Source: Schmidtea polychroa
Lineage: Eukaryota
DNA: 64,000 nt
NCBI GenBank assembly: GCA_044892525.1
Contig: CM097887.1
Location: 107,362,397 to 107,426,396, forward strand
Direction of reading: 5' to 3'
Below the pieces are notes generated by a model. It saw only the letters and a program-made list of their open reading frames with translations. It was not told where the DNA came from and did no database searches. The translations under genes were made by a program, and so were the position numbers. Of this stretch, positions 9,743 to 36,426 are shown in pieces. How positions within the stretch are numbered: position 1 is the stretch's first letter; each line of letters opens with the position of its first letter.

Positions 9743-9819
9743 CTATGAAATGCTCGGGGTTAACAGTAAAAACAGTAAACATTTTTCTTACCTATGAAAT
9801 GCTCGGGGTTAACAGTAAA
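9743..9819. promoter_or_regulatory. 28-bp direct repeat in the U3-side of the LTR (9743-9770, 9792-9819; also 35957-35984, 36006-36033); candidate enhancer
   Basis: ctatgaaatgctcggggttaacagtaaa occurs twice, 49 bp apart. Function is inferred from position only. Confidence 0.45.
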
Positions 9820-13263: not shown

Positions 13264-14652
13264 TTATTCCGTTCTACCCTTCTCCTCTTTCCTCACGGTC
13301 ATCTTGATATATATGGTATCATTTCTCGCCATATCTTCTACTCTTTGTTGTGAGATGAACGTAGGTGCTCCTGTTGCTGATCCTTCTTCGTTGAGGGGCC
13401 TCTGGTAAGCTATTTGATTCCCCGTTGTTTTGAAGCTTTGCTCATGTATACTTTGGTTGTTCATCAGAGTAATATCGATTTTTGCCTGGAACGGCCATTC
13501 TAATATTTCGTCGTATTCTCCTTTACATAACAGAAAGAAAATCGAAAAGTGCGTGTTTAATCCGGTTCCGTCCCCGTTGGGATATATCTTCATTTTCATT
13601 TTGTACCCATTTTTCCAAGAGTGGAATGTAGGACTTGTTATTCTTGTCTCTTCTCCGGTTTTTGCTTTTCGTATTCTTTCTTTTACTCCCGTTATTTTCC
13701 ATATGTAGGGTGCTGTTGGGGTTATCTCATTTAGATTTATTTCCCGTATTTTCTGATGTAGCTCCTTGGCCTGATTATTACTGATTTCTGTTCGGTTTAT
13801 TTGCATCTTTATGTTTGCTCGGGCTTCTTCGAACGCTTTCCTTTCTTCTAGTAGTTCTTTGACTAACACTTTCAACGATGTTATCTCTATCTCCATTTGT
13901 TTTACTTTCTCTTCGCTTTCTTGTAACGCAGTCGACCACATTTCTGCGTGAGTTGAAGCATTTTCTACTAAATGATGTGGTAACTCACCTCGGTGTAGTA
14001 ATTTCTGACAACCCCATCTACCTAGTACACATGTCATTCTTTTCTTTTCGCATTCCCTTAGATGCTGTGCCACCTTCATTATTTCCCCTTGGTTACATCC
14101 GTTTGGGCATTCCCCACTGAACTCCGCACATACTCTCTCCTCTTGGACATTGTGATGTTTGAGGGTGAGATTTATCCACGTATCTATTTCTCCACAGTGT
14201 TCACATCTTTCTAATCTCTCTTCACACTGCTTTTGATGTTCTTTTTCTTCGCTTGCTCGAATGGTTTTATGGCACCTTTCACACTGGCCAATTCTGTACA
14301 TACATTCTCCCATATGTTGTACTACCTTCCATATTACTCCTTTCCATTCGCATGGGGCATTTTTGCATCCCAGGTTGGTGTTTAACATGTCTTTCACTGC
14401 GGCTTTATCCTCGTTAGTGTCTTCTAAACTCGATATTAGTGTCTCTTTACACACCGGGCACCTCTGTGGTCTATTTTTTATTGCTTCACTGATACATTCT
14501 TTACATACTCTGCATCCACATTGCGTTTGGTGAGGTTCCTTTAACAACCCTTCACATATTCCGCACATAACATGTTTGTGTATTCTGATCGTTGTAGATT
14601 TTCGGACTTGCTCGACAATCTCCCTGAACTCTTCTCTTTGTCGTTTATCCAT
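13264..14652 (-). CDS. Full-length intronless TRAF (RING, TRAF zinc fingers, coiled coil, MATH/TRAF-C)
   Basis: RING CGICEGLLKEPHQTQCGCRVCKEC...CPVC; repeated CxxGC/HxxxC fingers; MATH core GYKMKMKIYPNGDGTGLNTHFSIFFLLCKGEYDEILEWPF resembling TRAF2/3/5. Confidence 0.95.
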   Translation of the reverse strand: MDKRQREEFREIVEQVRKSTTIRIHKHVMCGICEGLLKEPHQTQCGCRVCKECISEAIKNRPQRCPVCKETLISSLEDTNEDKAAVKDMLNTNLGCKNAPCEWKGVIWKVVQHMGECMYRIGQCERCHKTIRASEEKEHQKQCEERLERCEHCGEIDTWINLTLKHHNVQEERVCAEFSGECPNGCNQGEIMKVAQHLRECEKKRMTCVLGRWGCQKLLHRGELPHHLVENASTHAEMWSTALQESEEKVKQMEIEITSLKVLVKELLEERKAFEEARANIKMQINRTEISNNQAKELHQKIREINLNEITPTAPYIWKITGVKERIRKAKTGEETRITSPTFHSWKNGYKMKMKIYPNGDGTGLNTHFSIFFLLCKGEYDEILEWPFQAKIDITLMNNQSIHEQSFKTTGNQIAYQRPLNEEGSATGAPTFISQQRVEDMARNDTIYIKMTVRKEEKGRTE

Positions 14653-14737
14653 TCTATAATTATATGTACAAATAGTTCTTATCGATACAGGTTCGATATT
14701 TTATTTACAATTATTTACATTTTAAGCTAGGTTTGGT

Positions 14738-15097
14738 TTAGGGTTCGGAAGAGTCGGCTTCGTGTCCGCTCTCCTCTCTATTCATTAGCCATTCCGACCA
14801 GTCTTCTATTTCTGTCTGTTCTGCTTCCTCCCTCATTCGGTCTATTTCAATTTCCTGTCGACGGCTATATTGGGTTATCCTCTCTATCTCTCTTTGCATT
14901 TGTTCGATTTTTAACCTCTGGTCTTCAATTATCTTCAAATAACTAAATCCTCTGTTCATACTCTCGATCAGGTTTCTGTGCATCGTCAGTCCTTGTTCTT
15001 GCAAATTGGACACTAATTGTGCTAATACGGCACATTGTTGCTTCCATAATTCTTCAGTTACTGTATTGTGGTTCATTTCGTTATTTCCTTGATCCAT
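14738..15097 (-). CDS. Accessory short coiled-coil protein (119 aa from ATG at 15097)
   Basis: The ORF track starts at a TTG (15121); the first ATG is MDQGNNEM. Q/E/R-rich helical sequence with acidic C-terminus. Confidence 0.7.
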   Translation of the reverse strand: MDQGNNEMNHNTVTEELWKQQCAVLAQLVSNLQEQGLTMHRNLIESMNRGFSYLKIIEDQRLKIEQMQREIERITQYSRRQEIEIDRMREEAEQTEIEDWSEWLMNREESGHEADSSEP

Positions 15098-15257
15098 TCC
15101 TAATTTATATACACTTTTCAACTCTTATGTAAATTTAATTTTATTTTATGATTCCCGTTATTGTATAATATTGATACCGCGCTTATATAAAGATATAGTA
15201 CTGTTATATACATAAGATATACTTACTTTTTACAATTATATACAGTCATATTCCTTT

Positions 15258-16260
15258 CTATATACGTGAGTTTGGAGGGCGCTGAGCGTTCCAGGCCTCC
15301 ACCCACTGTTCTTGTTTGATATCACTTGGTCGTTTCACTCGATGTTGGAAATTTCTGATTCGAGTCATCTCTAGTTCTCCGCGATGTCGTTTATCCTTAA
15401 TTATTTTTATTGTTCCCCCCGTTATGATTAGGAATGCCCCTGTTATTATTATCCCACTGATCCACATCATCTGCTTCACGCTTATACTCTCTGGTTTTTC
15501 CTTGTTGGTTAATGTTGATATCGCTTCTGTACTTCTCTCGTTTCCTCTTTTGCCATTTCCTTTCATCATTTCCCGTATTCTTGCTATTTCCTCGTTCATA
15601 CCCTCCTTTGCCATCTTTTGTATTTTTTCCATCTCTTCCTCCGAAACATAGTTGTCCTGAGCTTCCTCACCAGTTTTCTTGTGCTTTCCTCCTTCGTTCT
15701 TTTCGTCGTGGTTTTTTCTTTTCCTTCCTCTTTTCCCCGGGTATCGTCGGCATTCTCTTTTTGATTCATTCCTCCAGATACAAACCGTGTATTCTTTCGG
15801 CGGCTGCTGCTGCGTCACATATTGATGGCATCTCTCACCTGGTCCTAATCTTGAAATACAGACTTTGTGCTCTTTTCTAGGTTGGATCTGCGTTATTACT
15901 ACTTCACCACCTTTTCCTAGGTGTACCTCTTTTCCTTTGACGTTCGTTATTCTCTTCCCGTCTCGATTTCGGTATGCTTCTTGTATTCTTACTTCTGTTA
16001 TTGGTTCTGTGTCCTCATTTATCAGTACTAATTTCTGATACGCTCTAGACATGCATCTTCCTAGTATGCACTTTTCCTTTAAGTCCCATTCTTCCTTTAA
16101 ATCCCACTGCTGCTCTTGTGCTTGCTTTCTCTTTTCTTGTTTTAGTTCGTCCTCTTTGCTATCTTGATTCTCCGCTTCTTTGGTTTCTTTTATCGTTCTC
16201 GTCCCTCCCTGAGCTGTTACTAACTCTATCATGGTAAGCATAATTATCATTAATATCATA
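15258..16260 (-). other. Polyprotein C-terminal type I membrane protein module
   Basis: Signal-like MILMIIMLTMIELVTA-Q (about 16205-16260), Cys-containing beta-rich ectodomain, TM MMWISGIIITGAFLIITGGTIKII (about 15403-15475), basic tail. Confidence 0.65.
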
Positions 16261-19200
16261 TTTGTCTCTATTTCTTTGTTAGTGAAAGGTAGGCATACCC
16301 TCTGTTTTCCGTTATTCGATTTTTCCTCCTCTTTGGTCTTGGTTCTCGGGCTGTTTCCCTCTCTTTTCGTATCCGAATCCTTGTTTTCTGGTTTACCCTC
16401 CTCCGGTTCTCTTTTCTCTTTATCCTCCTTTCGGCCTTTTCCGTTATTGTCATCGTGTTTATCTCCCTCGCTGTCATTTAAAATGTCGTCCTCGACATTT
16501 ATATCGTTCAATAATCTGCGATATGCTGTTAGCACTCTGTTTCTTGCTAATTTTGCTTCGAATTCAAACTCTTTTCTACCCGTTGCAGCATGTCTCTTTC
16601 TATTCCATTCTTTAACTAACTCTCTCAATTGCATACGACGATGTTTCCCAATTCGTTGTTGTTCGTTCTGATTTTGCGTGAATTTTAGGTCTTCTCTATT
16701 TAATACTACTAAAATAATTTTCGGCGTCCCCCCCTTAGTTAGGGTATTCTTTACCATCGCATTTTCTCCGTTTTCGTAGAATTCGTTTACATTTATCGCA
16801 TATTTATTATTTGGTGGTACTCTCCAGGTTAATAATAATTTCATTGCTTCTAGATTTTTCCGTACCGCATTCCATTGAAACTGAGATGTGTTTTTGCACA
16901 TATTTTCGACTTCTTCTTTTGTCGCATTTTTGCAAATAAATCTGATCATTTCTAAGTTTGGCTGTATGGTTGCCCAGTCCAAGGTGGAATTTCCTTCATT
17001 GGACTTTTCGTCTAGTTTCGATCCTGATTGATGTAGGATGTGGAGTGTTTTTGGGTGTATTTTCGTTATAGCTGCATACATCATGGCGGTTTCACCTTGT
17101 TCATTTTTCGTGTTGGTTTCCTCGCCCATCTCTCCAAGGATTCTCACGATCGTTATTGCTCTATTTTCTTTCGCTGCTAGTATTGCTTGTTGTAGGGGTG
17201 TTCTGGAATCCTTCGTTACCATCGTAAATGCTCGAGGCAAGAAGGTTTTGATTTTCCCGATATCTAAACCCGTGGTTTGATCTCTTGCGTATGTGTGTAC
17301 GGCCTTTATTATTTTTGACAATATTATTTCGTCTGGCAGCTCTAGCATTTCCTCAAAGAACACTTCTTTTGCCTTGCGTATTATTGCCTCTTGATCTATA
17401 CTCATTGATTTGGTTTCGATGACGTTGTTTGTGACCGTTTGGTTCGTTGTTGACTTTGATTCCCTGGATTTCTCATACCTTATTTTCGTTTTCTTTCCGT
17501 TTGGATTATTGATTCGTTCCTCTGCTGTAAGTATTTGGATAATATCCAGGTAATTCTCGCGGATGTTATTCATTGTGTCCATCATATATAACACACTTAC
17601 CGTTTCCCAATATTTATTCCGTACTTGGTTAGTAAATTGGAATAGGGATTTTTCGAATGTGTCGATTCGCTTTTTTGCTAACTGTTCGTCTTTATGATTT
17701 GTGAATTTTATCCCTCGTTCTAGTAATTGATTCGGGATTTCGAATAACTGATGTCCTTTCATAGCTTCTCTCATCAGCGTGTTCTCTCCTCTCGTGAACG
17801 CTTCGTTTACGTTGATCATATAATCGTTTCGAATTGGATCTCTCCATGTGATTAATATTCCGGTAATTGTCGTCAGTTTTTCTTTGATCGCCGTTAACAA
17901 TCCATCATACATGTTTCCGACTTCCCGATTGTCCTCATATGATAGTAGTTCCATCAATGACGTGAACGCCTCGGTACTTCTCCCTTCGATAGCATGATGT
18001 AGAGCGTTTTTCCGCTCGTGGTCTTGTGTAGTTATTTTCGATCCGGTATCGAGTAATGCGGTTATAATGTCTTTGGTTTTGCCTCTGTTTGCGGCTATCA
18101 TTAATGGTGTGTAACCTTGGTTGTTTGTTTGTTCTGTTGATCGCTTGCAGTCGTGAAATGCTTCTATTGTTTCTAGTATTTGCTCGTTGTTACCTACTTT
18201 CATGAGTTTGTGTAATGGTGTGTCTCCGTAATGATCTGTTATTGTAAATAATATTGGCCATTGGCTTTTGACTACTCGCAATAATGGGTGTGTCCTTTCT
18301 CTATTTGCATAGTTCTCGATCATCGTCAATAATCCTCCTAATATTTCGAAATCTAATCGATCTTTTGCCCATCCAGGTATTCTAATTTTTACCTCTTTTA
18401 CAATCTTTTCCGCTTCTGATGGTTGGATACCTAATCGTCCAGTGATCGGTTCCGCGAGTTGTTGCATCATGTTCATTCGGTAGGTTTGCGAACGTGTGGT
18501 TAATGTACGGCCTTCTGGTTGACTAGTAGCTGTTTTTGGAATTGATTTGCATCGTGCCACGTTTACGTATATTGGTCTGGTAAAGGGGTTATTTACCAAT
18601 TTCACTCTTACATTAGTTTCGCCTACGAATAAGATCTCATATGGTCCTTTTCCGTTGCGTTGTAACTTTTTTGTGGTTCCTGGAATTAATTCCGGGGTTT
18701 CTATCATTACCCAATCACCTGTTTGGAACGTATGTTGCTTCACGTTTTTCTTTCGATCGTGTAAATCTTTATAACTTTCCTGGTAGAACTTGATATTTAA
18801 TCCCGCAGTTTCCCAAATTTCTTGCATTCTTTCCTTGAATTTCGTAACATAATCATCGATCTCCATATACTGCGATATCGGTGGTTGGTATTCCAGGTCC
18901 ATTGGCATGTTACATTCTCTTCCGTACATTAATTTGAATGGGCTCATTTTCGTTGATGCGTGAATCGACATTCTGTACGCCATAAGACATAGGTTTATAT
19001 ATTCGTCCCAATCTCGTTGGTGACGGTCAACGTAGTTTGATAACATTTGTATAAGTGTTCCATTAAATCTTTCCGTCATCCCATTGGTTTGAGGGTGGTA
19101 TGGAGATGTTCTTAGTTTTGCTATTTTGAAGTAATTTGTTACTTCGCTCATTATCTCACTCATAAAATTAGTTCCCTGATCGGTTAAGATTTGTTTTGGT

Positions 19201-22200
19201 GTTCCATATCGGCAACATATCTCTTCTACCAAAATTTTTGCGATTGTTTTAGCTTTTTGGTCTGGCATCGCGAATGCTTCTGGAAATTTCGTAAGAAAGT
19301 CTGTGATCACCAGAATGTAAACGTTTCCTTTATCTGACTCTGGTAGTGGACCAACTACGTCCATGGATATCATTGTCATTGGTTCTATTGGTACTGGCAT
19401 TGGCGTTAAAGGTGCTTTCCATTTCGATCCAGTATTCTTCCTGGTTGCACAAGTTAGACAATTTTTTACCCATTCGGTTACATCTTCAGTTAACGTAGGC
19501 CAAAAATATTTCTGTTTCATTCTTGCTAACGTCTTTTTCGATGACATATGTCCTCCCAATCTCCCATCGTGATATTGCGTTAGTAACTCTTTTCGTCGGT
19601 TTTCCGGTATACACATTAATCGTTTTTCCCCATCCATTATCAGCAACCAATCTTTCTCTATAATATATCGGTGTCGGTGTTTATCCATATGTTCTTTTAA
19701 TTTTTGGTCTTTCGCATATACCTCTGTCTTTCCGGTTTTTACATAATCGATAATTTGTTTTAATTCCGCGTCCTCTTGTTGGTCCTTTCGTAATTGACAG
19801 AAATCCAAATCTTCCGCTACTATTAAGCATATGCGTTGCATTTCGGAATCCACCAAATCTGGGAAAATAAATCTTGACATACAATCGGCGTTGGCATTTG
19901 CTCTTCCCGCTTTGAATTTTATAAATGGGGAGTATTCTTGCAATTGCATGGCCCATCGCATCAGTCTACTGGACGCTTCTTTATGTTGCCCTAACCACAC
20001 TAATGGTTGATGATCCGTGGTTATGCATATCTCATGTCCCCATAGTAAATATCGGAAGTGTTTGATAGCTTGTATTATAGCCAATGCTTCTCGTTCTGTT
20101 ACCGAATAGTTCTTTTCGTGCTTTTTGAATGTTCGACTGTAATACCCGATTACTCTCTCTTTTCCCTCATCGTCTAATTGTCCCAGAATCGCGCCTGCCG
20201 CGTACCCGCTTGCATCCGTTGCCAATAGAAATGGCTTCTTAAAATCTGGGTGTACGAGGATAGGTGCTTCGATTAGTTTATCTCTCAGCGTTTCGAACGC
20301 CTGTTGTTGTTCTTTTTCCCAAATGAACGAAATATCCTTCTTTACTAATTCCTGGATTGGTTTTGCAATTCCTGCATAATTTTTGATAAATTTGCGATAG
20401 TATCCGCATAATCCTAGAAATTCCTGCACTTGGGTGACCGTTTTCGGTGCGGGACATGTTTTTATTTTCTCAATGTTTCTTGGATCTGGCTCCTTTCCTT
20501 TAGCTGACACTATGTGTCCTAAAAACGTGACTTTTTCCTTTGCCCAATCGCATTTTGATGGTTTGAGTTTGAGTTTCCACTGTCTTAATCTAATAAATAC
20601 GTTTCGGATATCTTCCAGATGTTGTTCAAATGTCGCTGAATAGATTAGTAAATCATCAATATATACCATACATTGTTTGATTCCATGGGTGACAAAGTTC
20701 ATACACCGTTGAAATGATGCTGGTGCGTTGGTCAGTCCAAATGGCATTTTTCTGAATTGATATAGATCTCGTCCCAACGTGAAAGCTGTTTTCTCTTTGT
20801 CCTCATCTTTGACTTTAATCTGCCAGTATCCACTTTTTAGATCTAGAGAAGTAAAATATGCTGCCCCTTGCAACATCAATAACATCTCATTGATGTCCGG
20901 CAATGGATAGGTATCTCTCTTGGTCACTGCGTTTAACTTCCGATAATCGATACAGAATCGTTGGGTGCCATCTTTCTTTTTTACCATGACCACTGGGAAT
21001 TGCCAGGGTGAGCAACTTGGTTCGATTACTTTTGCGTCTAGCATCTTTTGTACTTCTGCTTCGGCTATTTCTTTTTGCATTTCTGCTAGCTTGTATGGTC
21101 TTAATGCAATTGGAGTTTCATCTATGAGGGGTATTGCATGTAGGGTAACATCGCATGTACCCAAGTCTAAGTCTGAGATGGCGAATATATCTTTATATTC
21201 TACCAACAATCGGTGTAATTTTTTCTTTTCATCATTCGTCAACAACATACTATCTATTGTCCATAATTCATCATCTTTGATCATCTCGTTGGTCACTTTC
21301 GGTAATTCTATGTCCATCATTGGGGTCAATCTTCCCAATTTTTCGTTCTCATAAATGATTTTGTCTTCCTCTTCGAAATTCGTGATGTTGAGCGGTATCA
21401 CTCCTTCTTGGTTTATTGTGATTATTTCTCTTGCGAGTGGTAATTCTCGTCGCTTTTCGAATGACTTGCTTGGTTCAAAGATAACTTCTCCTTCCATACC
21501 CGTATCCACTTTTATCTGACAAATCATCTGTGATTTTGCTGGTACTATTATTTTTTCTGGACATCTGATGACTGCATTCATTTTGCATATTCTACCGGTT
21601 TTGTCTTTTAAACACATAGTTGTTAAGTCTATTACGACTTCTTTTAATAATTCTGGCATCAGGTCCGTTCCGATTATGCATGGTACGCTAAGTTTTGGTA
21701 TTACTGCCAAATACGTTTCAATTTCGTTGTCCTGGTATCTCAATGTAGTCCACCATCTTCCGACCACGTCCACTGTTTCTTTACTACATGCTATGATGTG
21801 AATTGTTGTTGATTCGATATCCTTCCAGTGTTTACTGGGGATTTGATTAATCGCTATCGCTGATACATTAGCTCCGGTGTCTATCATAGCATTGGTTTCT
21901 TTACCATTGATTTGAATCATAACTGTTACTGCTGGACCTCCAGGTAAACTCATCGCTGCTATTGTTCTTACGTCATCTGCTTGATCTACACTTTTGGTAC
22001 GTCGTGTTGGCATATAATGCATACCGGGTTGACTCGGTAATTGCGGATACATATTTTGTGTCATGGTCAAAGCTGTTTGTGGTCCCACGATATCCGGTGG
22101 TATATAGCTTCCATTGGCGATCCAGGTGTTTGTCTTTTCCTTTTCCCAATATGGTGCCGTTTCCATTGGTTTTTCGTTTGGGTTTCTGTTTGGATAAAGA

Positions 22201-25200
22201 CATTTATCGTTCCCGTTATCATCGTCGTCACTATCGCTGTTAGATGATTGGCTTCTAAATCGGTCCAAGAATTTTGGCTTATTCTTTTTCAATTGTCGTC
22301 TTGTTGCTTCATCGTACATTACTTTCCGGAATCGTCTGCCTACTTCCTCGTCGGTTCCTTTAATCTTTGTTAATATTTTAATCAATCGCTTTATCCGATG
22401 AATGTCTTTTGAGTGACCATGTAATACCATGGTTTTAGCTAAAAATGGTAAGAAGCCTACTATCATTTTCCAGTTAACTTTCTTTTCCCGCTTGTATATA
22501 TCGAAACAAGCTAACATTTGTGTTAGTATTACTCTGACTATCTGAATTATGAGTATGATCCCTAATATCCCGGCCATCATTTGTCCAAAAACTAAGAATC
22601 TTCCCCACATTGCTTTCATCATGTTTGACGTAGCTTGTTGAAAATGGTCTGGCGATAATAGCAGCTCGTAATTCGGGCCTGATTGATAATTTGTGCCCCC
22701 AGTTATTGTAACCATATTAGACAAAATGGATTCTCGTCTGGCTGGAAAGAGTACGTTAAGTCGTGCTGTTTCTAGATCTTCCGGGGAATACATACCACCG
22801 TTTGACACGTCTATAGGTTTGAAATCCAGCTCTGTGGCGAGTTCTATTAATCCAAATTTCTTGGGCTCCTCGGATATGGTTTTTCCCGGTAACATCATCC
22901 ATTTCCCATCGGGCCTTTCATATAAAGGTCCGTATGCATTAGAACAGTTAAAGAGATTTGGGTAGAAACCCACTGGATTCATAATTCTAGTGACTGGTTG
23001 GACGAATCGATTTTGTCCTTTATAACGGATTTCTAATTCATTTGCACATCTCTTTTCGGGTAGTATGGATTTTTCTGGCATTCGTGCATACGTCTTGGTA
23101 CACTGGTATGTGTACATCACTTCTCCTACCATTCTACCAAAGTGTCCATCTGGTAATGGGAGTGATGGCATCGTGTTATCTGGGTGCGTTATCGCAATAG
23201 CTAGCTTTGTTTTCAATATTTCTTTATTTAATGAACAATCGTTTTGTATTAGATCGTAATATACTTTTTGCAAGGTCGTTTGTCCGCGATGAAATAGAAA
23301 ATCCATTTTATTATTTGCATATAAGTATAGTTTTACGTCCTCCGTTGCTATCTTTCCCACTGCTCTATCGATTATTTGTCTCGACATATAGATACCTGCG
23401 TAATTGGTTTTATATACTATACTGTCACATTTGGTGGTTTCTTTCTCTTTGATAAATCTCATACCTAGATCTGGATCGTCTGTGATTAATGCTGTTGGTG
23501 TCTTCTGCGTTGAAAGTCTCTTTTCTCTGGGAGATGGTGGCATTGGTTTTCCATTTCGCATTCTCACTCTGTCGTTTCCATCCTCGTCGTTCTCGTTCTC
23601 ATATATTTCTCCTTTTACTTCATTGAACAAAGCACTTTTTAACAGTTGGAGTCGGCATTTTTGGGTATTAGCTTCATAGATTATAGTTGATACTCCTGTC
23701 CTGCATACGTTTTCTGTAGCTTTACACGCTGGGTTGGTCTTCATTTGGTAATTATTTGCGTCAAATTGCGCTTCGTATTCTTTTAATTCGACCGTGTAAG
23801 ACTCGATCACTACAACTCCCGATATTACCTCGCCTCGGATCGTATACGTACCTCCGTTACATGACCCATCTGATGATTTTACTTTTCCGGATACGTAAAC
23901 ACTTTCGGTTTTAATCATTCCAGTTTGTCCGTGAATTGTCACTCCGTTATGCATTTTTAGCGCTCCGGTTCTAAATAGCTCTTTACAATCCTCTCGTTGT
24001 ATTGATACGATTTCCTTATCCAGACCGGGTAGTATAAGAGTCGAATACGAATATTGTCCACAGTAATATGCGAGTACCTTTTTTGATACTACGCATTCCC
24101 TTGCTTGCGTTCTGATGAAATCTGATTCTTGATATACATGGTAAGTAACTTTTGTTCTCACGATGTCCAATTTGTTGGGTGAGGCTTGTCTGCATTCTTC
24201 TATGTCTCTCAATGAGTATTTATCTCTCATTATCATATTATCACAATCGTAGATGGTGAAGCCTGTTGCTCCACTTGTGCACAACATCCATATCATCATA
24301 GTCATCATTAACGAATTTATTGATGCTTTTCTGCTTGCGGGATCTTTCATCGGTAGTTCCCATTCTAGTTCATTTAACAGTTTTTTCAATCTAACTTGCA
24401 TCGACCTTTCTTGCTCATTTTTCCGTGGCGCTTGTATTAGTCTTTTCCATCCTCCTGCACGAATAATATGTGGTTCAATAGTATTCTCTATGATTGAAAC
24501 GGTCATTTCCACAGGATTTGCAAACTGTTTATTTGGTATTTTCCTCGCAGCTAGTCCCATCAAATTATACATCAAATACGTGATTACCACTAGGTGATGT
24601 TCGTCATCATTTGCATTTGTCGTGAGCTGCTCAATCACTCTCTTTGTTTCGTCCCAATCCGTTTTGGTGGTTTTCGTTTTCTCTTTGATTAACTTTGGGA
24701 TTATCCCCGAAATGGTGTGCCATAATTGTCTAGCTTCCGTACTGGCTACTTTCCGTTGCCACAAACGTCTAAGTTGTGGGTTTGTTATTATTAACATATC
24801 TTTTAACAATTCTCGTATCCATTTTTCTCCTCTTTCGATCGTTGGTTGGGCTTCCTTTAGATCCCATACTATCTTATCCAATTTTTCTAATCGAACTTGC
24901 CCTTGTTCTTGCTTTAATTGTTCTTTGGTTTTGAACTCAGATTTTTCTCCTTGTTTCTTAGGTCTTCCTTTTGCCCGTTTTTCCATCATCGTTCCGGCTT
25001 CTCTGGTATTTTCGTAATTCGGATTTCTTTCGTTATCCGTTCTGGGTAATGAGCTATCGTTATTTCTTAGCCACTCATTCCATTCGTCTATTATTTTGTC
25101 GGTTTGACTTTCTGGTGTTACTTTCGTTGGTTCTCTTTGCTTCTGGAATTGTTCATCCGTTTCGGTTTCCGTAGTATTGTCGATGATTTCTTTGATGTTC

Positions 25201-28200
25201 AGTTTCGTTGGTTGTTGATAACTCGTTGATGGCTGGTTATTAGTCCACATTTCGGCTCCTGTCGGCCATTTCACTAATAGCGGTGATCTTTCTCCTGGTT
25301 CATCGTCACTATCTTCCAGGATTATCTCTTCAACTTCTTCAGTTTCATTAGATTTACTTGGTGCTTTGTTCGGACTTGGAGTACTCAAACTGCCTTTTGT
25401 TGGTTTAATAATTTTACTTTTCCTTTTTAACGGTTTCCCCAACGTTTCTGCCATCGTTAATACATTTGTCTCTTCCAATCTCATGGGTGTTATCCCGACG
25501 TCTGCATTATCGTCTAGTGATTTTCCGAACAGTTGCAGATGGAATGGAGTTTCATATGCTAATTTCTTTTTTAATTCTCTAATTTTTGTTGTTGGATGCA
25601 CCTCTAGTTCCTCGATGCTCTTGTCCGGATACTTGATTCGGATGTGATACCTCTCCTGGGTGTCTTGTGCCCATTCCTGATTTCTCCATTTTCGAATAAT
25701 TTGTTCTAGCTGTTCTGGATACCATTCATTATATTGCCGGTATTCCTCTATTGCCTTTGCCATTCCTCTCAGATTGTGGATATTCTCTGATGTTTTTAAG
25801 ATGATATTAGCCAACGCTACTACCTGGCGTTTTTGATTTTTCGCTCCCATTGCTAAAATATCGCCTAATTGTTTATATCTTTCTTTCTCTTCTCGTTCTC
25901 TTGCTTCCGCCGCTTCCTCGCCGTCCATATCAGCATATTCCCGTTCCTTTTTCCTCATTGCATGAATATGTCTCGCTTCATTTTCGCTTTCTGATGTGAC
26001 ATCCGTCTCGCTTTCGTCATCTGATGTCTGTCCCCTTGCTTCCTCTTCATATTCTGGGGGTTCCTCTTCTTCTTCCTCCGATTCACTTTCTGTCTCACCG
26101 ATGTCTGTTTCCACGAAGGTTCCTTTCCGGATTTCCCATTCCTTACTTTCTGCATTCCACACTCTTTCCCATGGGGTTCGTCTGCAGGATCTGGTGCTTA
26201 ATTTCGTGATTTTTCCTTGTAGTTCTTTTTCTTTTAACCATTGTTGGTGGATTTCAATTAGTTCTATAGATTTTCGATATAACGTTTTCATCCGGTCTCG
26301 TATTTCTTTTTGATAGGTTACATCTCTTGTTCGAAATTCATCCATTGGTACTATCCTGATTATCTGGTGATTGTCCCACATACCCATTTCGCTTAACGAG
26401 GTGTCGTCCTCCGCTCGTAATATTATCTTATCGTACATCATGACTACATCATCCACCATACCATCACTACTTTCGCTACGTACCTTTTCCGTTATCTCTT
26501 GGTTTATTTTTGATACCAAGTCATCTACTGTACTCTGATTGCTCATTTTTATTCGTCGTTTTTCTTCGTTCGGTAACCATATGGTTATTTCCAACCTCTG
26601 TGGCTGGGTTTCTTTTAACCTTCCATATTTGTGGATCAAATTTATGGTTCTCCAATCACTCATTCGGAGCATTTCTGTATCTCGCAACCGGCTCATTAGT
26701 TCGTACATGGCTGGGGCTCGTCTGGTGATGAGTAAATCCCAGTTGTCTTCTACTTGTTCTTGAATTTGTTTGATCAGCTTATCCAGGTTTCGTCTCAGAG
26801 TACATTGTTTTATTTGTTCTAATTTCAATTTGATATTAAAATCATATTCTGCCTTGGCATCTTTAGCCCAATCGTAAAAATTGGCTGGTTGTTTTTCTTT
26901 ATGCAACTTCAGTATTTGCGTTTCTCCTGGCCATATTAGTGCATCTACTAAGTGCATATCTGGTTTGATCTGTTCTCCTTGGTATTGATACAGATATTCT
27001 TTCTTTCTCGAACTTCCCAAATGTTCTCGTATCCAATCGAAAAGTTCGTCGGTGACTGTATTTTTTATCCACATTCTTTCAAGTCCTCTACTCGTTCCAA
27101 TTTTTATTACATACCGCGTGGTATCGGCCTGCTTCATTTTTTCCATATAATTTTTTATAATTGATTTTTCCTCGTTTGGTATTAGATCTTTCTCGTTTCT
27201 TTCCAATTTCATCACTTTTTGCACGAATCGCCTGAATGGTATTACGTCAATGAACTCTTGGTTCCTCACTACTACTGGGAGTATTTCCGCTACTTGTTTT
27301 ATCGCTTCCTCCTTCCCTTTTCTCAACTTCATTTCGATATCCTCGTCTTCACTTTCGCTGGTTATCTCGCTTTCGCCTTCTTCCTCTTTGATTTCCCCTT
27401 TTGGAGGTTCGCTTATTTCATTCAGCTGTAGTATTTCTCCACCCAAACTACTTACATAGTCTTCTTCCTCGTCTGATGATGCTACATCTTTTGTCCTTTT
27501 CATCATATTGATTTGCAAGTTTCTCATCCTTGGTACTCTCTTTAGTTTCTTTCTTTCGAATCTCGTTGTTTCTTCTGATTCTAATTCCTGTAGCATTTGG
27601 TGGTTTAGTTGACTGGTTTGTTCCTTGCTCTTGTTATTTTCATCTTCTGTCTCGGCTTTCGCTTTATTATGTTCTTTTTCGATTTTATCTTTTATCTTTT
27701 TCCAGAATATTTTCTGAATTCTCTGGTTTCCTTTTAAAATCGTGGTTGAATTCTCTGTTTTCATTTCCGTTGTTATTTCTTTTACCTTTTCTGGTTCAGT
27801 CATGGGTACTACCCTTGGGCTTTTCCCGTAATTGTAGCAATACTGGCTCTTCATGTCTTTTACTAACTTCATCATATTTATTCGCAATGGTTGTTCTTGT
27901 CGTTGTTGGTTGCGTTCTTGTTTTATCCTCTCTTCCTCGGCCTGTAGCCTTTGCCATTCTTGTACATGTTGATGCACTTCATAATTGTTGAGATTTTCGG
28001 TACTCCTCATCATACGTATATTCTGGGTTTGTTGTGGTGCTGATTCTTGTCTTGGTCTCATCATTTGTTGCATCATCTGTTTCATCTGCGAAATTTCCTG
28101 CATAACGTTCATTTGTTTTCCTTCGTTAGGGTTACTTTGTCGTTGCGGATTCGCTATATAATTATTGTTTCGCTGTGGTGGTCGTTGTTGTTGGCCCCTT

Positions 28201-29111
28201 TCTCGGCAATCTCTGGAGATGTGACCTGGCTGACCACAGTTAAAACAGCCTCGCAATTGGCATACATTTTCGGTATGTCCACGCCGTCCGCAACGATTAC
28301 AATTTGAATTTCTATAACAATCTCTGTCCCAGTGTCCTGATTTACCGCATGTTCGGCACTGCTTGTTATCGTTCATATTTCGCCGATTATTGAAATTGTT
28401 CTCATTATTCGGGTTGTTACGATTACCATTATTCCCGTTTGATCGTCCTTGTGGTGGTTTGAAAATTTGGTGCGCTCCTGGTATAAATTGATTCATTTTC
28501 GGTTCTTGATTGTTGTTATCTCCGTTATCTGCTTTCGCTATTGCTGTCGCTATCCTTCCCTCCTCTTGCATAATATTCATTTGAGCTGGAAGGTGGAGCT
28601 CGCATCTTGTAGCCCAATCTATGGCTTCCTCTAATGTTTTGCACATTTGACAACCTACTGAGGCTCTTACTTCTTCTCGGCGTAATCCCTCTATGAAATA
28701 ACCGATCAGATTTTCTTCGGGTAATTTTCCATTCATTGCTTTCTTTGCTAATCTCCGCAATTCACTGGCATATAATGTTATCGATTCGTTTGCTCTTTGT
28801 TTCCTATTTGCTAGTTCGCCCAACGCCTGGTTGATTGGCTTACTGGCTCCGAAGGTTTTCTTCAGGAATGTTTTAATATCTTCCCACTTTTCTAATTTCG
28901 TGTCTCTCTCTTTAGCTTCTAAATATACCTCTAATGCACTATCGCACAAAAACAACGGCATCCTTTTACTAATTGCTTCGGGTGTCCATCCACACACAGT
29001 GATATAAACTTCAAAATTAGTTATGAACGTTGCTAGCTTGTTTGCATTTCCGTTGAACGGTTCTCCTCTGAACTTCTCTTTATACTCGTCGGTTTTTACG
29101 ACATTCGTCAT
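15258..29111 (-). CDS. 4,617-aa Gag-UBL-Bcl2like-Env-Pol-ankyrin-membrane polyprotein
   Basis: Single ORF without stops. Gag capsid, three CCHC knuckles, protease DTG, RT YIDD, RNase H TDAS, integrase HHCC/DDE/GPY are all in frame. Confidence 0.97.
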   Translation of the reverse strand: MTNVVKTDEYKEKFRGEPFNGNANKLATFITNFEVYITVCGWTPEAISKRMPLFLCDSALEVYLEAKERDTKLEKWEDIKTFLKKTFGASKPINQALGELANRKQRANESITLYASELRRLAKKAMNGKLPEENLIGYFIEGLRREEVRASVGCQMCKTLEEAIDWATRCELHLPAQMNIMQEEGRIATAIAKADNGDNNNQEPKMNQFIPGAHQIFKPPQGRSNGNNGNRNNPNNENNFNNRRNMNDNKQCRTCGKSGHWDRDCYRNSNCNRCGRRGHTENVCQLRGCFNCGQPGHISRDCRERGQQQRPPQRNNNYIANPQRQSNPNEGKQMNVMQEISQMKQMMQQMMRPRQESAPQQTQNIRMMRSTENLNNYEVHQHVQEWQRLQAEEERIKQERNQQRQEQPLRINMMKLVKDMKSQYCYNYGKSPRVVPMTEPEKVKEITTEMKTENSTTILKGNQRIQKIFWKKIKDKIEKEHNKAKAETEDENNKSKEQTSQLNHQMLQELESEETTRFERKKLKRVPRMRNLQINMMKRTKDVASSDEEEDYVSSLGGEILQLNEISEPPKGEIKEEEGESEITSESEDEDIEMKLRKGKEEAIKQVAEILPVVVRNQEFIDVIPFRRFVQKVMKLERNEKDLIPNEEKSIIKNYMEKMKQADTTRYVIKIGTSRGLERMWIKNTVTDELFDWIREHLGSSRKKEYLYQYQGEQIKPDMHLVDALIWPGETQILKLHKEKQPANFYDWAKDAKAEYDFNIKLKLEQIKQCTLRRNLDKLIKQIQEQVEDNWDLLITRRAPAMYELMSRLRDTEMLRMSDWRTINLIHKYGRLKETQPQRLEITIWLPNEEKRRIKMSNQSTVDDLVSKINQEITEKVRSESSDGMVDDVVMMYDKIILRAEDDTSLSEMGMWDNHQIIRIVPMDEFRTRDVTYQKEIRDRMKTLYRKSIELIEIHQQWLKEKELQGKITKLSTRSCRRTPWERVWNAESKEWEIRKGTFVETDIGETESESEEEEEEPPEYEEEARGQTSDDESETDVTSESENEARHIHAMRKKEREYADMDGEEAAEAREREEKERYKQLGDILAMGAKNQKRQVVALANIILKTSENIHNLRGMAKAIEEYRQYNEWYPEQLEQIIRKWRNQEWAQDTQERYHIRIKYPDKSIEELEVHPTTKIRELKKKLAYETPFHLQLFGKSLDDNADVGITPMRLEETNVLTMAETLGKPLKRKSKIIKPTKGSLSTPSPNKAPSKSNETEEVEEIILEDSDDEPGERSPLLVKWPTGAEMWTNNQPSTSYQQPTKLNIKEIIDNTTETETDEQFQKQREPTKVTPESQTDKIIDEWNEWLRNNDSSLPRTDNERNPNYENTREAGTMMEKRAKGRPKKQGEKSEFKTKEQLKQEQGQVRLEKLDKIVWDLKEAQPTIERGEKWIRELLKDMLIITNPQLRRLWQRKVASTEARQLWHTISGIIPKLIKEKTKTTKTDWDETKRVIEQLTTNANDDEHHLVVITYLMYNLMGLAARKIPNKQFANPVEMTVSIIENTIEPHIIRAGGWKRLIQAPRKNEQERSMQVRLKKLLNELEWELPMKDPASRKASINSLMMTMMIWMLCTSGATGFTIYDCDNMIMRDKYSLRDIEECRQASPNKLDIVRTKVTYHVYQESDFIRTQARECVVSKKVLAYYCGQYSYSTLILPGLDKEIVSIQREDCKELFRTGALKMHNGVTIHGQTGMIKTESVYVSGKVKSSDGSCNGGTYTIRGEVISGVVVIESYTVELKEYEAQFDANNYQMKTNPACKATENVCRTGVSTIIYEANTQKCRLQLLKSALFNEVKGEIYENENDEDGNDRVRMRNGKPMPPSPREKRLSTQKTPTALITDDPDLGMRFIKEKETTKCDSIVYKTNYAGIYMSRQIIDRAVGKIATEDVKLYLYANNKMDFLFHRGQTTLQKVYYDLIQNDCSLNKEILKTKLAIAITHPDNTMPSLPLPDGHFGRMVGEVMYTYQCTKTYARMPEKSILPEKRCANELEIRYKGQNRFVQPVTRIMNPVGFYPNLFNCSNAYGPLYERPDGKWMMLPGKTISEEPKKFGLIELATELDFKPIDVSNGGMYSPEDLETARLNVLFPARRESILSNMVTITGGTNYQSGPNYELLLSPDHFQQATSNMMKAMWGRFLVFGQMMAGILGIILIIQIVRVILTQMLACFDIYKREKKVNWKMIVGFLPFLAKTMVLHGHSKDIHRIKRLIKILTKIKGTDEEVGRRFRKVMYDEATRRQLKKNKPKFLDRFRSQSSNSDSDDDDNGNDKCLYPNRNPNEKPMETAPYWEKEKTNTWIANGSYIPPDIVGPQTALTMTQNMYPQLPSQPGMHYMPTRRTKSVDQADDVRTIAAMSLPGGPAVTVMIQINGKETNAMIDTGANVSAIAINQIPSKHWKDIESTTIHIIACSKETVDVVGRWWTTLRYQDNEIETYLAVIPKLSVPCIIGTDLMPELLKEVVIDLTTMCLKDKTGRICKMNAVIRCPEKIIVPAKSQMICQIKVDTGMEGEVIFEPSKSFEKRRELPLAREIITINQEGVIPLNITNFEEEDKIIYENEKLGRLTPMMDIELPKVTNEMIKDDELWTIDSMLLTNDEKKKLHRLLVEYKDIFAISDLDLGTCDVTLHAIPLIDETPIALRPYKLAEMQKEIAEAEVQKMLDAKVIEPSCSPWQFPVVMVKKKDGTQRFCIDYRKLNAVTKRDTYPLPDINEMLLMLQGAAYFTSLDLKSGYWQIKVKDEDKEKTAFTLGRDLYQFRKMPFGLTNAPASFQRCMNFVTHGIKQCMVYIDDLLIYSATFEQHLEDIRNVFIRLRQWKLKLKPSKCDWAKEKVTFLGHIVSAKGKEPDPRNIEKIKTCPAPKTVTQVQEFLGLCGYYRKFIKNYAGIAKPIQELVKKDISFIWEKEQQQAFETLRDKLIEAPILVHPDFKKPFLLATDASGYAAGAILGQLDDEGKERVIGYYSRTFKKHEKNYSVTEREALAIIQAIKHFRYLLWGHEICITTDHQPLVWLGQHKEASSRLMRWAMQLQEYSPFIKFKAGRANANADCMSRFIFPDLVDSEMQRICLIVAEDLDFCQLRKDQQEDAELKQIIDYVKTGKTEVYAKDQKLKEHMDKHRHRYIIEKDWLLIMDGEKRLMCIPENRRKELLTQYHDGRLGGHMSSKKTLARMKQKYFWPTLTEDVTEWVKNCLTCATRKNTGSKWKAPLTPMPVPIEPMTMISMDVVGPLPESDKGNVYILVITDFLTKFPEAFAMPDQKAKTIAKILVEEICCRYGTPKQILTDQGTNFMSEIMSEVTNYFKIAKLRTSPYHPQTNGMTERFNGTLIQMLSNYVDRHQRDWDEYINLCLMAYRMSIHASTKMSPFKLMYGRECNMPMDLEYQPPISQYMEIDDYVTKFKERMQEIWETAGLNIKFYQESYKDLHDRKKNVKQHTFQTGDWVMIETPELIPGTTKKLQRNGKGPYEILFVGETNVRVKLVNNPFTRPIYVNVARCKSIPKTATSQPEGRTLTTRSQTYRMNMMQQLAEPITGRLGIQPSEAEKIVKEVKIRIPGWAKDRLDFEILGGLLTMIENYANRERTHPLLRVVKSQWPILFTITDHYGDTPLHKLMKVGNNEQILETIEAFHDCKRSTEQTNNQGYTPLMIAANRGKTKDIITALLDTGSKITTQDHERKNALHHAIEGRSTEAFTSLMELLSYEDNREVGNMYDGLLTAIKEKLTTITGILITWRDPIRNDYMINVNEAFTRGENTLMREAMKGHQLFEIPNQLLERGIKFTNHKDEQLAKKRIDTFEKSLFQFTNQVRNKYWETVSVLYMMDTMNNIRENYLDIIQILTAEERINNPNGKKTKIRYEKSRESKSTTNQTVTNNVIETKSMSIDQEAIIRKAKEVFFEEMLELPDEIILSKIIKAVHTYARDQTTGLDIGKIKTFLPRAFTMVTKDSRTPLQQAILAAKENRAITIVRILGEMGEETNTKNEQGETAMMYAAITKIHPKTLHILHQSGSKLDEKSNEGNSTLDWATIQPNLEMIRFICKNATKEEVENMCKNTSQFQWNAVRKNLEAMKLLLTWRVPPNNKYAINVNEFYENGENAMVKNTLTKGGTPKIILVVLNREDLKFTQNQNEQQRIGKHRRMQLRELVKEWNRKRHAATGRKEFEFEAKLARNRVLTAYRRLLNDINVEDDILNDSEGDKHDDNNGKGRKEDKEKREPEEGKPENKDSDTKREGNSPRTKTKEEEKSNNGKQRVCLPFTNKEIETNMILMIIMLTMIELVTAQGGTRTIKETKEAENQDSKEDELKQEKRKQAQEQQWDLKEEWDLKEKCILGRCMSRAYQKLVLINEDTEPITEVRIQEAYRNRDGKRITNVKGKEVHLGKGGEVVITQIQPRKEHKVCISRLGPGERCHQYVTQQQPPKEYTVCIWRNESKRECRRYPGKRGRKRKNHDEKNEGGKHKKTGEEAQDNYVSEEEMEKIQKMAKEGMNEEIARIREMMKGNGKRGNERSTEAISTLTNKEKPESISVKQMMWISGIIITGAFLIITGGTIKIIKDKRHRGELEMTRIRNFQHRVKRPSDIKQEQWVEAWNAQRPPNSRI
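16670..18240 (-). other. Two tandem ankyrin-repeat modules downstream of integrase
   Basis: GDTPLH, GYTPLMIAA, KNALHHAI (about 17700-18240) and RTPLQQAI, GETAMMYAA, GNSTLDWAT (about 16670-17220). Both modules end in a similar WRxPxxNxYxINVNExxxxGEN block. Confidence 0.88.
18560..19580 (-). other. Integrase domain (HHCC, DDE core, GPY/F)
   Basis: HDGRLGGH...NCLTC; ISMDVVGPLP; ILTDQGTNF; NGMTERFNGTL; GKGPYEI. Confidence 0.97.
19880..21210 (-). other. Reverse transcriptase and RNase H domains
   Basis: RFCIDYRKLN, LDLKSGYWQI, MPFGLTNAPASFQR, YIDD (20652-20663), FLLATDASG, YSVTEREALA, TDHQPL. Confidence 0.97.
21640..21935 (-). other. Aspartic protease domain
   Basis: AMIDTGANVSAI (DTG at 21873-21881) and IIGTDLM. 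Confidence 0.95.
22410..24260 (-). other. Envelope glycoprotein domain, chuvirus-G-like / class III fusion-protein-like
   Basis: Follows a signal-like segment (about 24262-24325) and starts FTIYDC. Cys pattern ECVV..YYCG..DC..GSC..C..C; REKR furin-type site at 23517-23528; GEVMYTYQC...RCANELEIRY...RFVQPVTRI...NCS block; TM MAGILGIILIIQIVRVIL. Confidence 0.8.
24430..24895 (-). other. Candidate Bcl-2-like helical domain
   Basis: IENTIEPHIIRAGGWKRLIQ resembles the BH2 motif (Bcl-xL HLEPWIQENGGWDTFV), preceded at BH1-like spacing by TKRVIEQLTTNANDDEHHLVVITYLMYNL; canonical NWGR is absent. Confidence 0.55.
25450..27120 (-). other. Three ubiquitin-like domains (about 26900-27120, 26350-26600, 25450-25655)
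   Basis: Third: HIRIKYPDKSIEELEVHPTTKIRELKKKL...LFGKSLDD, versus ubiquitin LEVEPSDTIENVKAKI...FAGKQLED. Second: ITIWLPNEEKRRIKMSNQSTVDDLVSKI. First (weaker): YQGEQIKPDMHLVDALIWPGETQIL. Confidence 0.65.
28206..29111 (-). other. Gag capsid-like domain plus three CCHC zinc knuckles (28206-28358)
   Basis: EPFNGNANKLATFITNFE...W...FIEGL; CRTCGKSGHWDRDC, CNRCGRRGHTENVC, CFNCGQPGHISRDC. Confidence 0.93.
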
Positions 29112-30420
29112 GATTGGTGTTCTAGGTTCGTCTGTTTCTTTTAAATTGTCTAACGATGTGACTAAACTTTGGGCTGATAATTCCTCGGTTGACGTTGCTA
29201 AACTATTAGTGATATCGGACAGACTTTCTCTACTTCGAGATCGACTAGGGGTATATCCGAGATTTTCTTGGTCAAATATGGGTACTTGATTGGTTCTTCT
29301 GGATCCTTGTGATATTCCTCTTTGATGTTTAATGGATCGTCCTCTTTTGAGTTGTTGTAATTCGTCTCCTGAAAATAATACGTCTCCTGGCTTACTAGAA
29401 GATCTAAGATTGGGTTTATCCGTGATTCCTTTCTTACGCTTCTTGGTAATTAGCGGCTATTGAATCGGACGCGTTCGGTTCTGATTGTGTTTCCTTCGAT
29501 AAATATTCTGTATGAATCTGCTACTGAGATCCTGAGGAGATTTACTAATTCCTGGCAGATGGCTGCTAATACTTCTTCCGTTCTGGAGTCTTCCGGTTGC
29601 TGTGTCTCTCGGTGCGGGTTCTGAATGGATTTATCCTTGGTTGATTGTCGATTTTCTTCGAATTCCTTTTGTGCAGGTTCTGGATTGTCTTGGTTGGCTG
29701 GATTGGCTTGATATCTAAAATGAAAAAATGATCTCGTGTTGCATTTGCTTACACGACTTCATCATTCTTTCTACAACATTCAAAAACAGACACCTTTTAG
29801 GTTTCTGTTTGTGCTTCCCCTATCTTTTGTGAAATCCTGTCTGCGGTTTATAATATCCCATCAGCCCGTATTTTCCGTCGATTTTAAATTATCTATATGG
29901 GGTAGTAACAATTATCTATAAAGTCGTAATAATTATCTATTCGTTATCAATTATAGTAAAAATAGGTCGTTGTCGGTCTCTGCTTATTACCCCCCTTTCA
30001 TTTTCCTAATCCTTTTGCGCTGTTGTCGCTATTTTACTTTTCATATTCACTATTATTACGCTCGGTTCTACTCTGGAACCAATAAAATGCATTTTCCCGG
30101 TTTAACAAAAAAAATATTCCGTAGAGTTTCTCTACTTCACTGGGATCCCTTTAATTAGTTAGTTACTTTCCTCTTTACTCATTATCATCATTTCATCTAT
30201 TCTTTATTTTCTATTGTCTCTTTAATTCGTTTCCTTCTTCCCTTTCCTTTTTCATTATAATCTTATTTTCTTTTCCACGAGCTCGTTTATTTCCTCTCTA
30301 AACTCGAATTTTCAAAATTACATTCAATTTGTTCTAGCTAGCTTTAATATTCCATATCACTAGTAATTTAAATATTATCTCATTGTAGCTTAACTGCTAT
30401 CTCTCGCTTTTCTAGGCCTT

Positions 30421-30864
30421 TACGACTGGCTGGCACTATTCAACAGCTCAATCTTCTTCCTTCTGATCGGTTGGACTATTCAACAACTCGATCTTACGAC
30501 TGGCTGGCACTATTCAACAGCTCAATCTTCCTCCTTCCTGATCGGTTGGACTTTTCACAACTCGACCTTACGACTGGCTGGCACTATTCAACAGCTCAAT
30601 CTTCCTCCTTCCTGATCGGTTGGACTTTTCACAACCCGACCTTACGACTGGCTGGCACTATTCAACAGCTCAATCTTCCTCCTTCTTGATCGGTTGGACT
30701 TTTCACAACTCGACCTTACGACTGGCTGGCACTATTCAACAGCTCAATCTTCCTCCTTCCTGATCGGTTGGACTTTTCACAACTCGACCTTACGACTGGC
30801 TGGCACTATTCAACAGCTCAGTCTTCCTCCTTGACCGGCTGGATTATTCGACAGCTCGGCTTCA
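30421..30864. repeat. 74-bp tandem repeat, five full units plus one degenerate, in the leader between the RING ORF and gag
   Basis: tacgactggctggcactattcaacagctc starts at 30421, 30495, 30569, 30643, 30717 and 30791. Confidence 0.95.
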
Positions 30865-31436
30865 ATATTCCTCGCTCTGCATGCTTCTATTTCTCTTTTC
30901 TTCTTTTACTCTAGTTTACCATTTTCTCTGTCTACTTTTAATTTGTCGACTTAATCTTACCGCTTGGGAGTGTTTCCCCTTTCCCCCCTTGCTCAAAACG
31001 CACGACGATCGCGATGATCCATTTCTACATTGGCATGGTGATCAGTCATGTCGCAAAAACTTCTCATCATATGCGATGGTACCCCGCCCTACGCTTCTTA
31101 CTTGGGTTGATCAGTTATCCCCTCCCAACGGGTTCTTGCAATAAGACGTACCGCCCGAAGGTGGCTCGGTTTGTACCCCTGCAGTCTATATTGGGACTAA
31201 TTCCACGTTATTCAACCCTCTCTTCATTTGATTCCGAAAAAAAAAATAAAACAAAACAAACACGCAAATATTCATTCGTCATGCAAATTTTATTAGTCCT
31301 ATTCATCAAAACTTTTTAAAGACGAATTTATTTATCATAAACATAAAGATTGAATCATTAACAGTACGTGTTACTTCAACAATTTCATGCATTCTTGTTC
31401 AAACATCGTATACTTGCTGTTACATCGCCGGCCGTT

Positions 31437-31922
31437 TCATTCGCCATAATAGACCATATGGGTCTCTTTTATTTCATATTTGCACATCGTGCATCTTTTT
31501 AGGTCTTTTACACACTCTTCACAGTGACTGAGGTGTCCACACGGCAAGAATAATACGCGAATAGGACGGAGTTTGCAGGCTATACAAGTTCGTAATTGGT
31601 TAACTTTTTCCTGTATTTTTTGTTCGATTGCATCTGGTATTGTATTTAGTGAGTCTTTTAGACGCTGGTAATCTAGATTTAATGTTGGGTGGTTCAATCT
31701 CTCTTGATACCACTGATATACGGTTTCGGGGTTTATTTTTCCATCTGGGCGACTTAGGCCTGTGGCTAATATCATATGATTAGGTACGACTGGTGTTTGT
31801 CCGATTGCTTGCAGTAATATCGCGTTGATTTTTTCTCTTTTATGCGTCAGTGTTGTTAGGGAGTCGTTTTCTATATCGATAAACTTGAGCAGTTGTTGCA
31901 TTTGGTTCGCGAATTCTGTCAT
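31437..31922 (-). CDS. 161-aa protein with C-terminal IAP-type C3HC4 RING finger, no BIR
   Basis: CIACKLRPIRVLFLPCGHLSHCEECVKDLKRCTMCKYEIKETHMVY (RING at 31482-31586) matches the IAP/MYLIP RING pattern; strong acceptor-like ttacttttccaacAG lies 2 nt before the ATG. Confidence 0.88.
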   Translation of the reverse strand: MTEFANQMQQLLKFIDIENDSLTTLTHKREKINAILLQAIGQTPVVPNHMILATGLSRPDGKINPETVYQWYQERLNHPTLNLDYQRLKDSLNTIPDAIEQKIQEKVNQLRTCIACKLRPIRVLFLPCGHLSHCEECVKDLKRCTMCKYEIKETHMVYYGE

Positions 31923-36424: not shown

Positions 36425-36426
36425 CT

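Follow-up and report, generated by a model that had tools for sequence, protein, structure and literature searches.

The 64,000-nucleotide stretch of Schmidtea polychroa DNA analyzed here (the window; GenBank assembly GCA_044892525.1, contig CM097887.1, positions 107,362,397 to 107,426,396 of the forward strand) contains a giant long terminal repeat (LTR) retroelement that is young, intact and present in many near-identical copies. It carries a TRAF, a RING protein, two ankyrin arrays, candidate ubiquitin-like (UBL) domains and a domain with a predicted Bcl-2 fold. This cargo is under purifying selection and matters to the element, and across related families its modules are distributed in layers, neither sporadically nor as one package. 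We favor, with moderate confidence, the reading that the conserved cargo serves replication of the element because it helps the host cell that expresses it to survive or to tolerate it, through modules that were acquired separately and do not form a single TRAF2-cIAP-IkB circuit. Giant planarian retroelements with apoptosis and ubiquitin cargo are already known; the lineage described here differs in having no BIR domain.

All cargo modules lie within one intact LTR element

The element occupies positions 6051-36424 on the minus strand (30,374 bp). Its two LTRs have TG...CA termini and differ by one mismatch in 4,160 bases, and a 4-bp target-site duplication, CTAT, flanks both ends. Elsewhere in the genome, TRAF DNA identity was at least 99% in all 40 copies scored out of 361 candidates, and a frame of exactly 4,732 amino acids (aa) was found by hand count in 59 of 150 scored copies of the Bcl-2 region. 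The modules run in the order LTR with a 250-aa open reading frame (ORF), 161-aa RING ORF, 74-bp array, 4,732-aa frame, 119-aa ORF, TRAF and three further ORFs. The long frame itself is ordered gag, UBL1, UBL2, UBL3, Bcl-2-like domain, env, protease, reverse transcriptase (RT), RNase H, integrase, two ankyrin arrays and a tail. All listed cargo modules are on the minus strand of this single element, with the following window coordinates.

32265..36424, minus strand: 5' LTR, 4,160 bp, TG...CA, one mismatch to the other LTR
6051..10210, minus strand: 3' LTR, 4,160 bp
36425..36428, partner at 6047-6050: target-site duplication CTAT
32799..33551, second copy at 6585-7337, minus strand: 250-aa ORF within the LTR, without a Pfam match; related families have diverged homologues
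31437..31922, minus strand: 161-aa ORF with a helical N-terminal part and a cIAP-like C3HC4 RING, no BIR
30420..30832: 5.6 tandem copies of a 74-bp unit in the leader ahead of gag
15258..29111, minus strand: polyprotein from the first Met (open frame of 4,732 aa, 15258-29456)
28167..29111, minus strand: Gag (Retrotrans_gag, CCHC knuckles)
26901..27113, minus strand: UBL1, likely ubiquitin-like domain, no diglycine
26346..26594, minus strand: UBL2, probable ubiquitin-like or UBX-like domain, weak support
25434..25658, minus strand: UBL3, predicted beta-grasp ubiquitin-like fold, no diglycine
24954..24980, minus strand: AT-hook-like basic motif ahead of the Bcl-2-like domain, also present in families B and C (PF02178, E 0.046 in C)
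24414..24845, minus strand: predicted Bcl-2-fold domain, BH2-like GGW retained, BH1 NWGR absent
24261..24311, minus strand: hydrophobic stretch, putative signal peptide of Env that may double as a tail anchor for the Bcl-2-like domain, called from sequence and below the 1.6 hydropathy cut-off
22422..24260, minus strand: Env, viral fusion glycoprotein between gag and pol (PF24664, E 2.5e-70)
18537..21923, minus strand: Pol (protease, RT, RNase H, integrase)
17637..18389, minus strand: ankyrin array 1 (Ank_2, E 4.8e-17)
16557..17459, minus strand: ankyrin array 2, 22-25% identity to array 1
14738..15097, minus strand: 119-aa ORF, no Pfam family, also in family B
13264..14652, minus strand: intronless full-length TRAF, 462 aa
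12016..13125, minus strand: 369-aa coiled-coil-like ORF right after TRAF, in the place of the family-B BIR-RING ORF
11146..11898, minus strand: 250-aa coiled-coil-like ORF
10437..11105, minus strand: 222-aa ORF with two hydrophobic stretches, no assigned function

A dUTPase-like region between protease and RT gave no Pfam match.

From this layout, and not from comparison with a reference sequence, we infer a Burro-type envelope-bearing gypsy retroelement, an assignment that does not fix the numbered Burro family. Planarian Burro/GYPSM1 elements, as PMC6431247 summarizes Jurka 2007 and Grohme 2018, encode MATH_TRAF_C, BIR, ankyrin, BCL2-like and Ubi/SUMO-like domains in ORF1 or as accessory ORFs, together with an in-frame env. 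The likeness extends to size (about 30 kb, multi-kb LTRs and an ORF1 of about 4,700-4,900 aa), to a single giant ORF1 with gag and in-frame env before protease, RT, RNase H and integrase, and to UBL and BCL2-like domains before env with ankyrin and TRAF/MATH cargo. Relative to that description the window element differs in lacking a BIR and a MATH domain in ORF1, in having its TRAF as a separate downstream ORF, and in its two ankyrin arrays. GAG-ENV-POL elements with a gB-type Env have also been reported from Platyhelminthes (PMC13524379); these errantiviruses share the position of Env between gag and pol and the multiple intact copies, but the passages searched mention no apoptosis, ubiquitin, Bcl or TRAF cargo.

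TRAF, RING and ankyrin modules

The TRAF comprises a RING, a Cys/His-rich zinc-finger region, a coiled coil and a MATH domain (Pfam PF21355, E 2e-27). In the PDB, TRAF3, TRAF1 and TRAF2 tied as its best matches (E 4-5e-28), and the TRAF subtype is not separable. A MATH tree placed six element rows on one side and 30 host rows on the other with unstarred support of 90/75, where long branches meet, and a single TRAF capture is therefore neither shown nor rejected. Five host-located TRAFs (L128-L131 and L133) are single frames of 454-473 aa and, in contrast to the majority of host TRAFs, seem to have no introns; in the tree they fell apart from the TRAFs of the elements. The planarian TRAF family is described as expanded and survival-relevant (PMC6109357, PMC7586133), with more cell death after host TRAF knockdown (PMC7586133), and planarian TRAFs have been reported as TBK1-regulated immune genes in animals whose NF-kB homologues are highly divergent (PMC13563047).

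The 161-aa ORF is predicted to carry a C-terminal IAP-type RING (Pfam PF13920, E 3e-11), the closest PDB structures being the RINGs of cIAP2 and cIAP1 (E 2e-10 and 5e-10). No BIR was found anywhere in the window element by Pfam, by pattern search or by tblastn with the BIR of a related element, which places the ORF outside the IAP family as defined by at least one BIR domain. In cIAPs, BIR1 binds TRAF2 and the BIRs (BIR2/3) recruit substrates (PMC8869227). The window element resembles the cellular cIAP1/2-TRAF2 E3 complex of that account in encoding a cIAP-like RING and a full TRAF, but its TRAF2-binding BIR1 and substrate-binding BIR2/3 are absent. The two ankyrin arrays were recognized as Ank_2 (E 5e-17 and 1e-9), and only generic ankyrin families scored in Pfam, which assigns the arrays neither to IkB-type nor to poxviral ANK/F-box or PRANC-type proteins. 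A first-pass annotation had placed a TRAF, an IAP-type RING, ankyrin arrays, three UBLs and a Bcl-2-like domain on one retroelement, and the first three of these were borne out by Pfam and PDB matches inside the one LTR element.

Predicted Bcl-2 and ubiquitin-like folds

Taken alone, the Bcl-2-like region gave only a Pfam match at E 0.064 and no PDB match in a single-sequence search, and a single-sequence AlphaFold2 model was unusable (predicted local distance difference test, pLDDT, 41). A profile of six element-only orthologues placed Bcl-xL in the top 51 of its 119 PDB matches (best E 1.1e-3), profiles built from related elements had Bcl-xL at rank one, and orthologues from related elements scored as Bcl-2 in Pfam at E 2e-6, 1e-5 and 3e-3. 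An AlphaFold2 model built from nine element-only sequences returned Bcl-2 family members at all of ranks 1-8 among 48,161 chains (Z 11.5-13.3, root-mean-square deviation (rmsd) 2.7-3.2 A, 126-142 residues aligned), with the reservation that the model has a pLDDT of about 70 and that helical Z scores under about 13 can be generic. Profiles and model were built from related elements only, with host Bcl-2 sequences left out, and host Bcl-2 therefore did not steer the result. The structural check proposed with the original Bcl-2-like call thus came out in its favor, and the model indicates that a Bcl-2 helical fold is present.

Bcl-2-like sequences also occur elsewhere in the genome. One is a multi-copy Bcl-2 ORF that a Polinton/Maverick-like element (L087:5777-6232, 6893-7360; L089:1964-6508), with pPolB (E 4e-31) and an integrase, carries together with a TBP-like ORF. 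A second, likewise in multiple copies, has an in-frame stop that probably reflects an intron and is found close to a Pox_A32-like ATPase (L090).

The three UBL calls fared unequally. UBL3 has a beta-grasp ubiquitin-like fold in the same AlphaFold2 model (Z 11.3, rmsd 1.5 A). UBL1 is likely a ubiquitin-like domain, its profile matching ubiquitin variants in the PDB at E 0.011, although it was not in the top 14 of 232 windows when the profile was built from families C-E only. For UBL2 the call is probable and still unproven: a PDB search with its own profile did not return ubiquitin, and the call draws on sub-threshold beta-grasp Pfam hints and on 9 bits against a profile of the other families' UBLs. 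Six of the seven domain calls are thus solid or likely, UBL2 being the seventh. A pooled UBL profile matched single ubiquitin-like domains (E about 1e-7), and a single-sequence PDB search of the region returned one irrelevant match. Residues 770-1350, which cover the UBLs, contain no GG, and the UBLs thus lack the C-terminal diglycine of conjugatable ubiquitin-like modifiers. A homologue search with the TRAF scored none of 3,252 candidates, a representative library had no match to the UBL-Bcl-2 region, and the ESM Atlas gave no usable match; such blanks are not evidence of novelty.

Cargo modules are layered across five related families

The genome was searched with the BIR, Bcl-2 and fusion protein sequences, which yielded four further families (B-E) beside the window family, A. 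In the RT tree A and B were joined at 100/100, as were all five families together; RT identity was 85-90% between A and B and fell to 48-50% across the five. At least one UBL and a Bcl-2-like domain stand directly ahead of Env in all five families. The TRAF, the upstream BIR-less RING and the ankyrin arrays turned up in no family other than A and B; families C, D and E (L072-L073, L076, L189, L192, L195), which are shorter and env-bearing, were judged from two copies each with LTRs unmapped, and one short RING match lay 4.7 kb beyond one family-D copy. In family C there is an additional ORF, about 700 aa long, that matches no Pfam family. The first-pass annotation had suggested checking whether modules co-occur across families, and they do so in layers, which speaks against sporadic occurrence and equally against a single package.

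A third layer is specific to family B (L063:5399-8137, L067:4852-7607, L084, L086, L199-L200), where a BIR-RING ORF follows the TRAF and a MATH domain lies inside ORF1 in three of three copies. Going by length, this ORF (392-393 aa) makes up almost all of the 150 listed BIR matches. In family A the TRAF abuts the coiled-coil ORF with no BIR at the junction in all 15 other copies seen, a count that omits four family-A stretches not spanning the junction; 3 of the 16 newly fetched stretches matched nothing. Neither arrangement was seen in families C, D and E, which fits loss of the BIR-RING in A as well as its gain in B. Family B also has an upstream BIR-less RING (27-28% identical to that of the window family) and one ankyrin array to the window family's two. 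In one family-A copy (L004) the 119-aa ORF directly follows ankyrin array 1, array 2 and the tail being deleted.

Family B matches the reported layout of Burro1, with MATH in ORF1 and a BIR-RING after the TRAF, and the window family lacks both features. The window family is a sister lineage of the Burro1-like family B, and its sole IAP-like part is the BIR-less upstream RING. BURRO1 is under PIWI control and is raised in differentiated cells upon smedwi-2 knockdown (PMC8532177). The Burro1 BIR-RING (B-IAP) reportedly shields stem cells from caspase-mediated apoptosis (Lee et al. 2026, Dev Cell, as cited in PMC13465017). An anti-apoptotic toolkit for the window element, as first proposed, gains from the selection on its cargo and from this role reported for a sister lineage, and loses in that the BIR-RING in question is absent here. 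We found no account of a BIR-less Burro lineage in the literature searched, although the primary Burro papers or their supplements may hold one.

Selection on the cargo

Ratios of nonsynonymous to synonymous substitution (dN/dS) were computed for 18 modules against one diverged family-A copy. They were, roughly, 0.01-0.15 in the 13 modules with measurable dS, including 0.02-0.06 for the UBLs, 0.03-0.06 for the ankyrins and 0.15 for MATH; dS was saturated in the other five, among them the Bcl-2-like domain (dN 0.037). The RING ORF gave 0.08-0.20 across 20 copies of 71-88% identity picked from stop-free rows. Because it is under purifying selection, the cargo is not passenger DNA. That captured host DNA rides along without function is accordingly very improbable, for although a large host TRAF family is available for capture and the RING ORF changes more quickly than pol, constraint is strong wherever dS could be measured, just 6 of 150 RING copies listed (71-100% identity) have stops, and the element TRAFs are intact at only 26-42% identity to host MATH domains.

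Proposed working of the cargo and its alternatives

Under the favored reading, the element protease would cut the polyprotein into UBL1-UBL2, UBL3-Bcl-2-like and ankyrin pieces. Such cleavage is suggested by a recurring motif that was counted 11 times at module borders, where shuffles gave 4.6, in a pattern that was written after the sequence had been seen; it occupies the same places in A and B and also marks the RNase H-integrase border. The piece with the Bcl-2 fold would terminate at the putative signal peptide of Env, so that it would be tethered to a membrane and produced in a one-to-one ratio with the fusion protein; it may damp death or stress signals. Among the many TRAFs of the host, that of the element may serve as a decoy or as a rewiring adaptor. 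Since cIAPs bind TRAF2 and their substrates through BIRs, the BIR-less RING would be without IAP-type targeting and may be an E3 ligase whose targets are chosen by its own N-terminal part, not a caspase inhibitor.

Several points weigh against this reading. Both the cleavage sites and the tail anchor are predictions. The BH1 motif NWGR is replaced in nine of nine element rows, which represent all five families, and this makes canonical BH3 binding doubtful. Families C, D and E are abundant with no TRAF, RING or ankyrin detected in the two copies of each. Near-saturated dS (proportion of synonymous differences, pS, 0.49-0.82) makes the dN/dS ratios rough, and selection shows the value of a module to the element, not an action on cell death. 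For the window family such an action is a proposal. Contigs of presumed-RNA runs cover 30, 18, 3 and 2 of 30 element bins, a pattern that DNA would give as well when an element has so many copies. The notion that Burro interferes with apoptosis and ubiquitination was itself published as a hypothesis in 2019 (PMC6431247).

Poxviral Bcl-2-fold proteins act as immune-signalling decoys, and it is possible, though rather unlikely, that the Bcl-2 fold and UBLs have been similarly repurposed, or serve processing, trafficking or turnover of Gag and Env, with the TRAF, RING and ankyrins countering antiviral or silencing pathways and not cell death. The loss of BH1 fits here, as host Bcl-2 copies (L096, L098) retain NWGR, and so do the fixed place directly ahead of Env in five families, the internal position of the UBLs without diglycine, and the TBK1 regulation of planarian TRAFs (PMC13563047). 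However, the closest structural matches of the Bcl-2-like model are apoptosis regulators, several of them BH3-bound. Some viral Bcl-2 proteins with a diverged BH1 still block apoptosis, which also tells against repurposing.

The first-pass annotation had gone further, proposing a coordinated survival kit in the style of tumour necrosis factor receptor (TNFR) signalling (TRAF, IAP ligase, IkB-like ankyrins and Bcl-2) for persistence in stem or germ cells. All modules are indeed on one element and under selection, the TRAF, upstream RING and ankyrins co-occur in the A+B clade (100/100), and in family B the TRAF adjoins a BIR-RING. Against this, neither the window element nor the TRAF junction of the other family-A copies seen has a BIR, and BIR1 is what mediates cIAP-TRAF2 binding (PMC8869227), the Bcl-2 fold is without BH1 NWGR, and the modules were acquired in layers. 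No IkB feature tested positive in the ankyrins, and planarian NF-kB homologues are divergent (PMC13563047). We consider this circuit improbable and did not retain it.

Other features of the window

The giant element interrupts the 5' end of a Tc5/pogo-type DDE transposase gene (5950-6050 and 36425-37866), whose reading frame runs on across the target duplication, with a stop at 37072-37074. To the left of the element, 2982-5669 holds a 1,261-bp tandem duplication (99.6% identity). A small second gypsy element (54517-59083; 118-bp direct repeats, gag ORF 57859-59031, pol ORF 54642-57806) is unrelated to the giant element's clade. A plus-strand ORF of 411 aa (50830-52065) gave only a weak MAP65_ASE1 match (E 0.0017).

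Implications

Envelope-bearing planarian retroelements may, tentatively, be a natural series of survival kits, and we hold this idea as possible but doubtful. In five families, an ancient UBL-Bcl-2-Env unit would link synthesis of the fusogen to a Bcl-2 fold that lacks BH1 and is tethered to a membrane. The success of one lineage that is spreading recently without the BIR gene to which the mutualism of Burro1 is credited would imply a second, caspase-independent survival route, and gain or loss of the BIR might mark a switch between parasite and mutualist. What the present analysis adds is support from predicted structures for the Bcl-2-like and UBL3 assignments and a BIR-less sister lineage with TRAF, RING, ankyrin, UBL and Bcl-2-fold cargo and recent insertions, which is a natural control for the effect of the Burro1 BIR. 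With the other cargo present in this lineage and the BIR missing, knocking down one family at a time would distinguish what the BIR does from what the other modules do.

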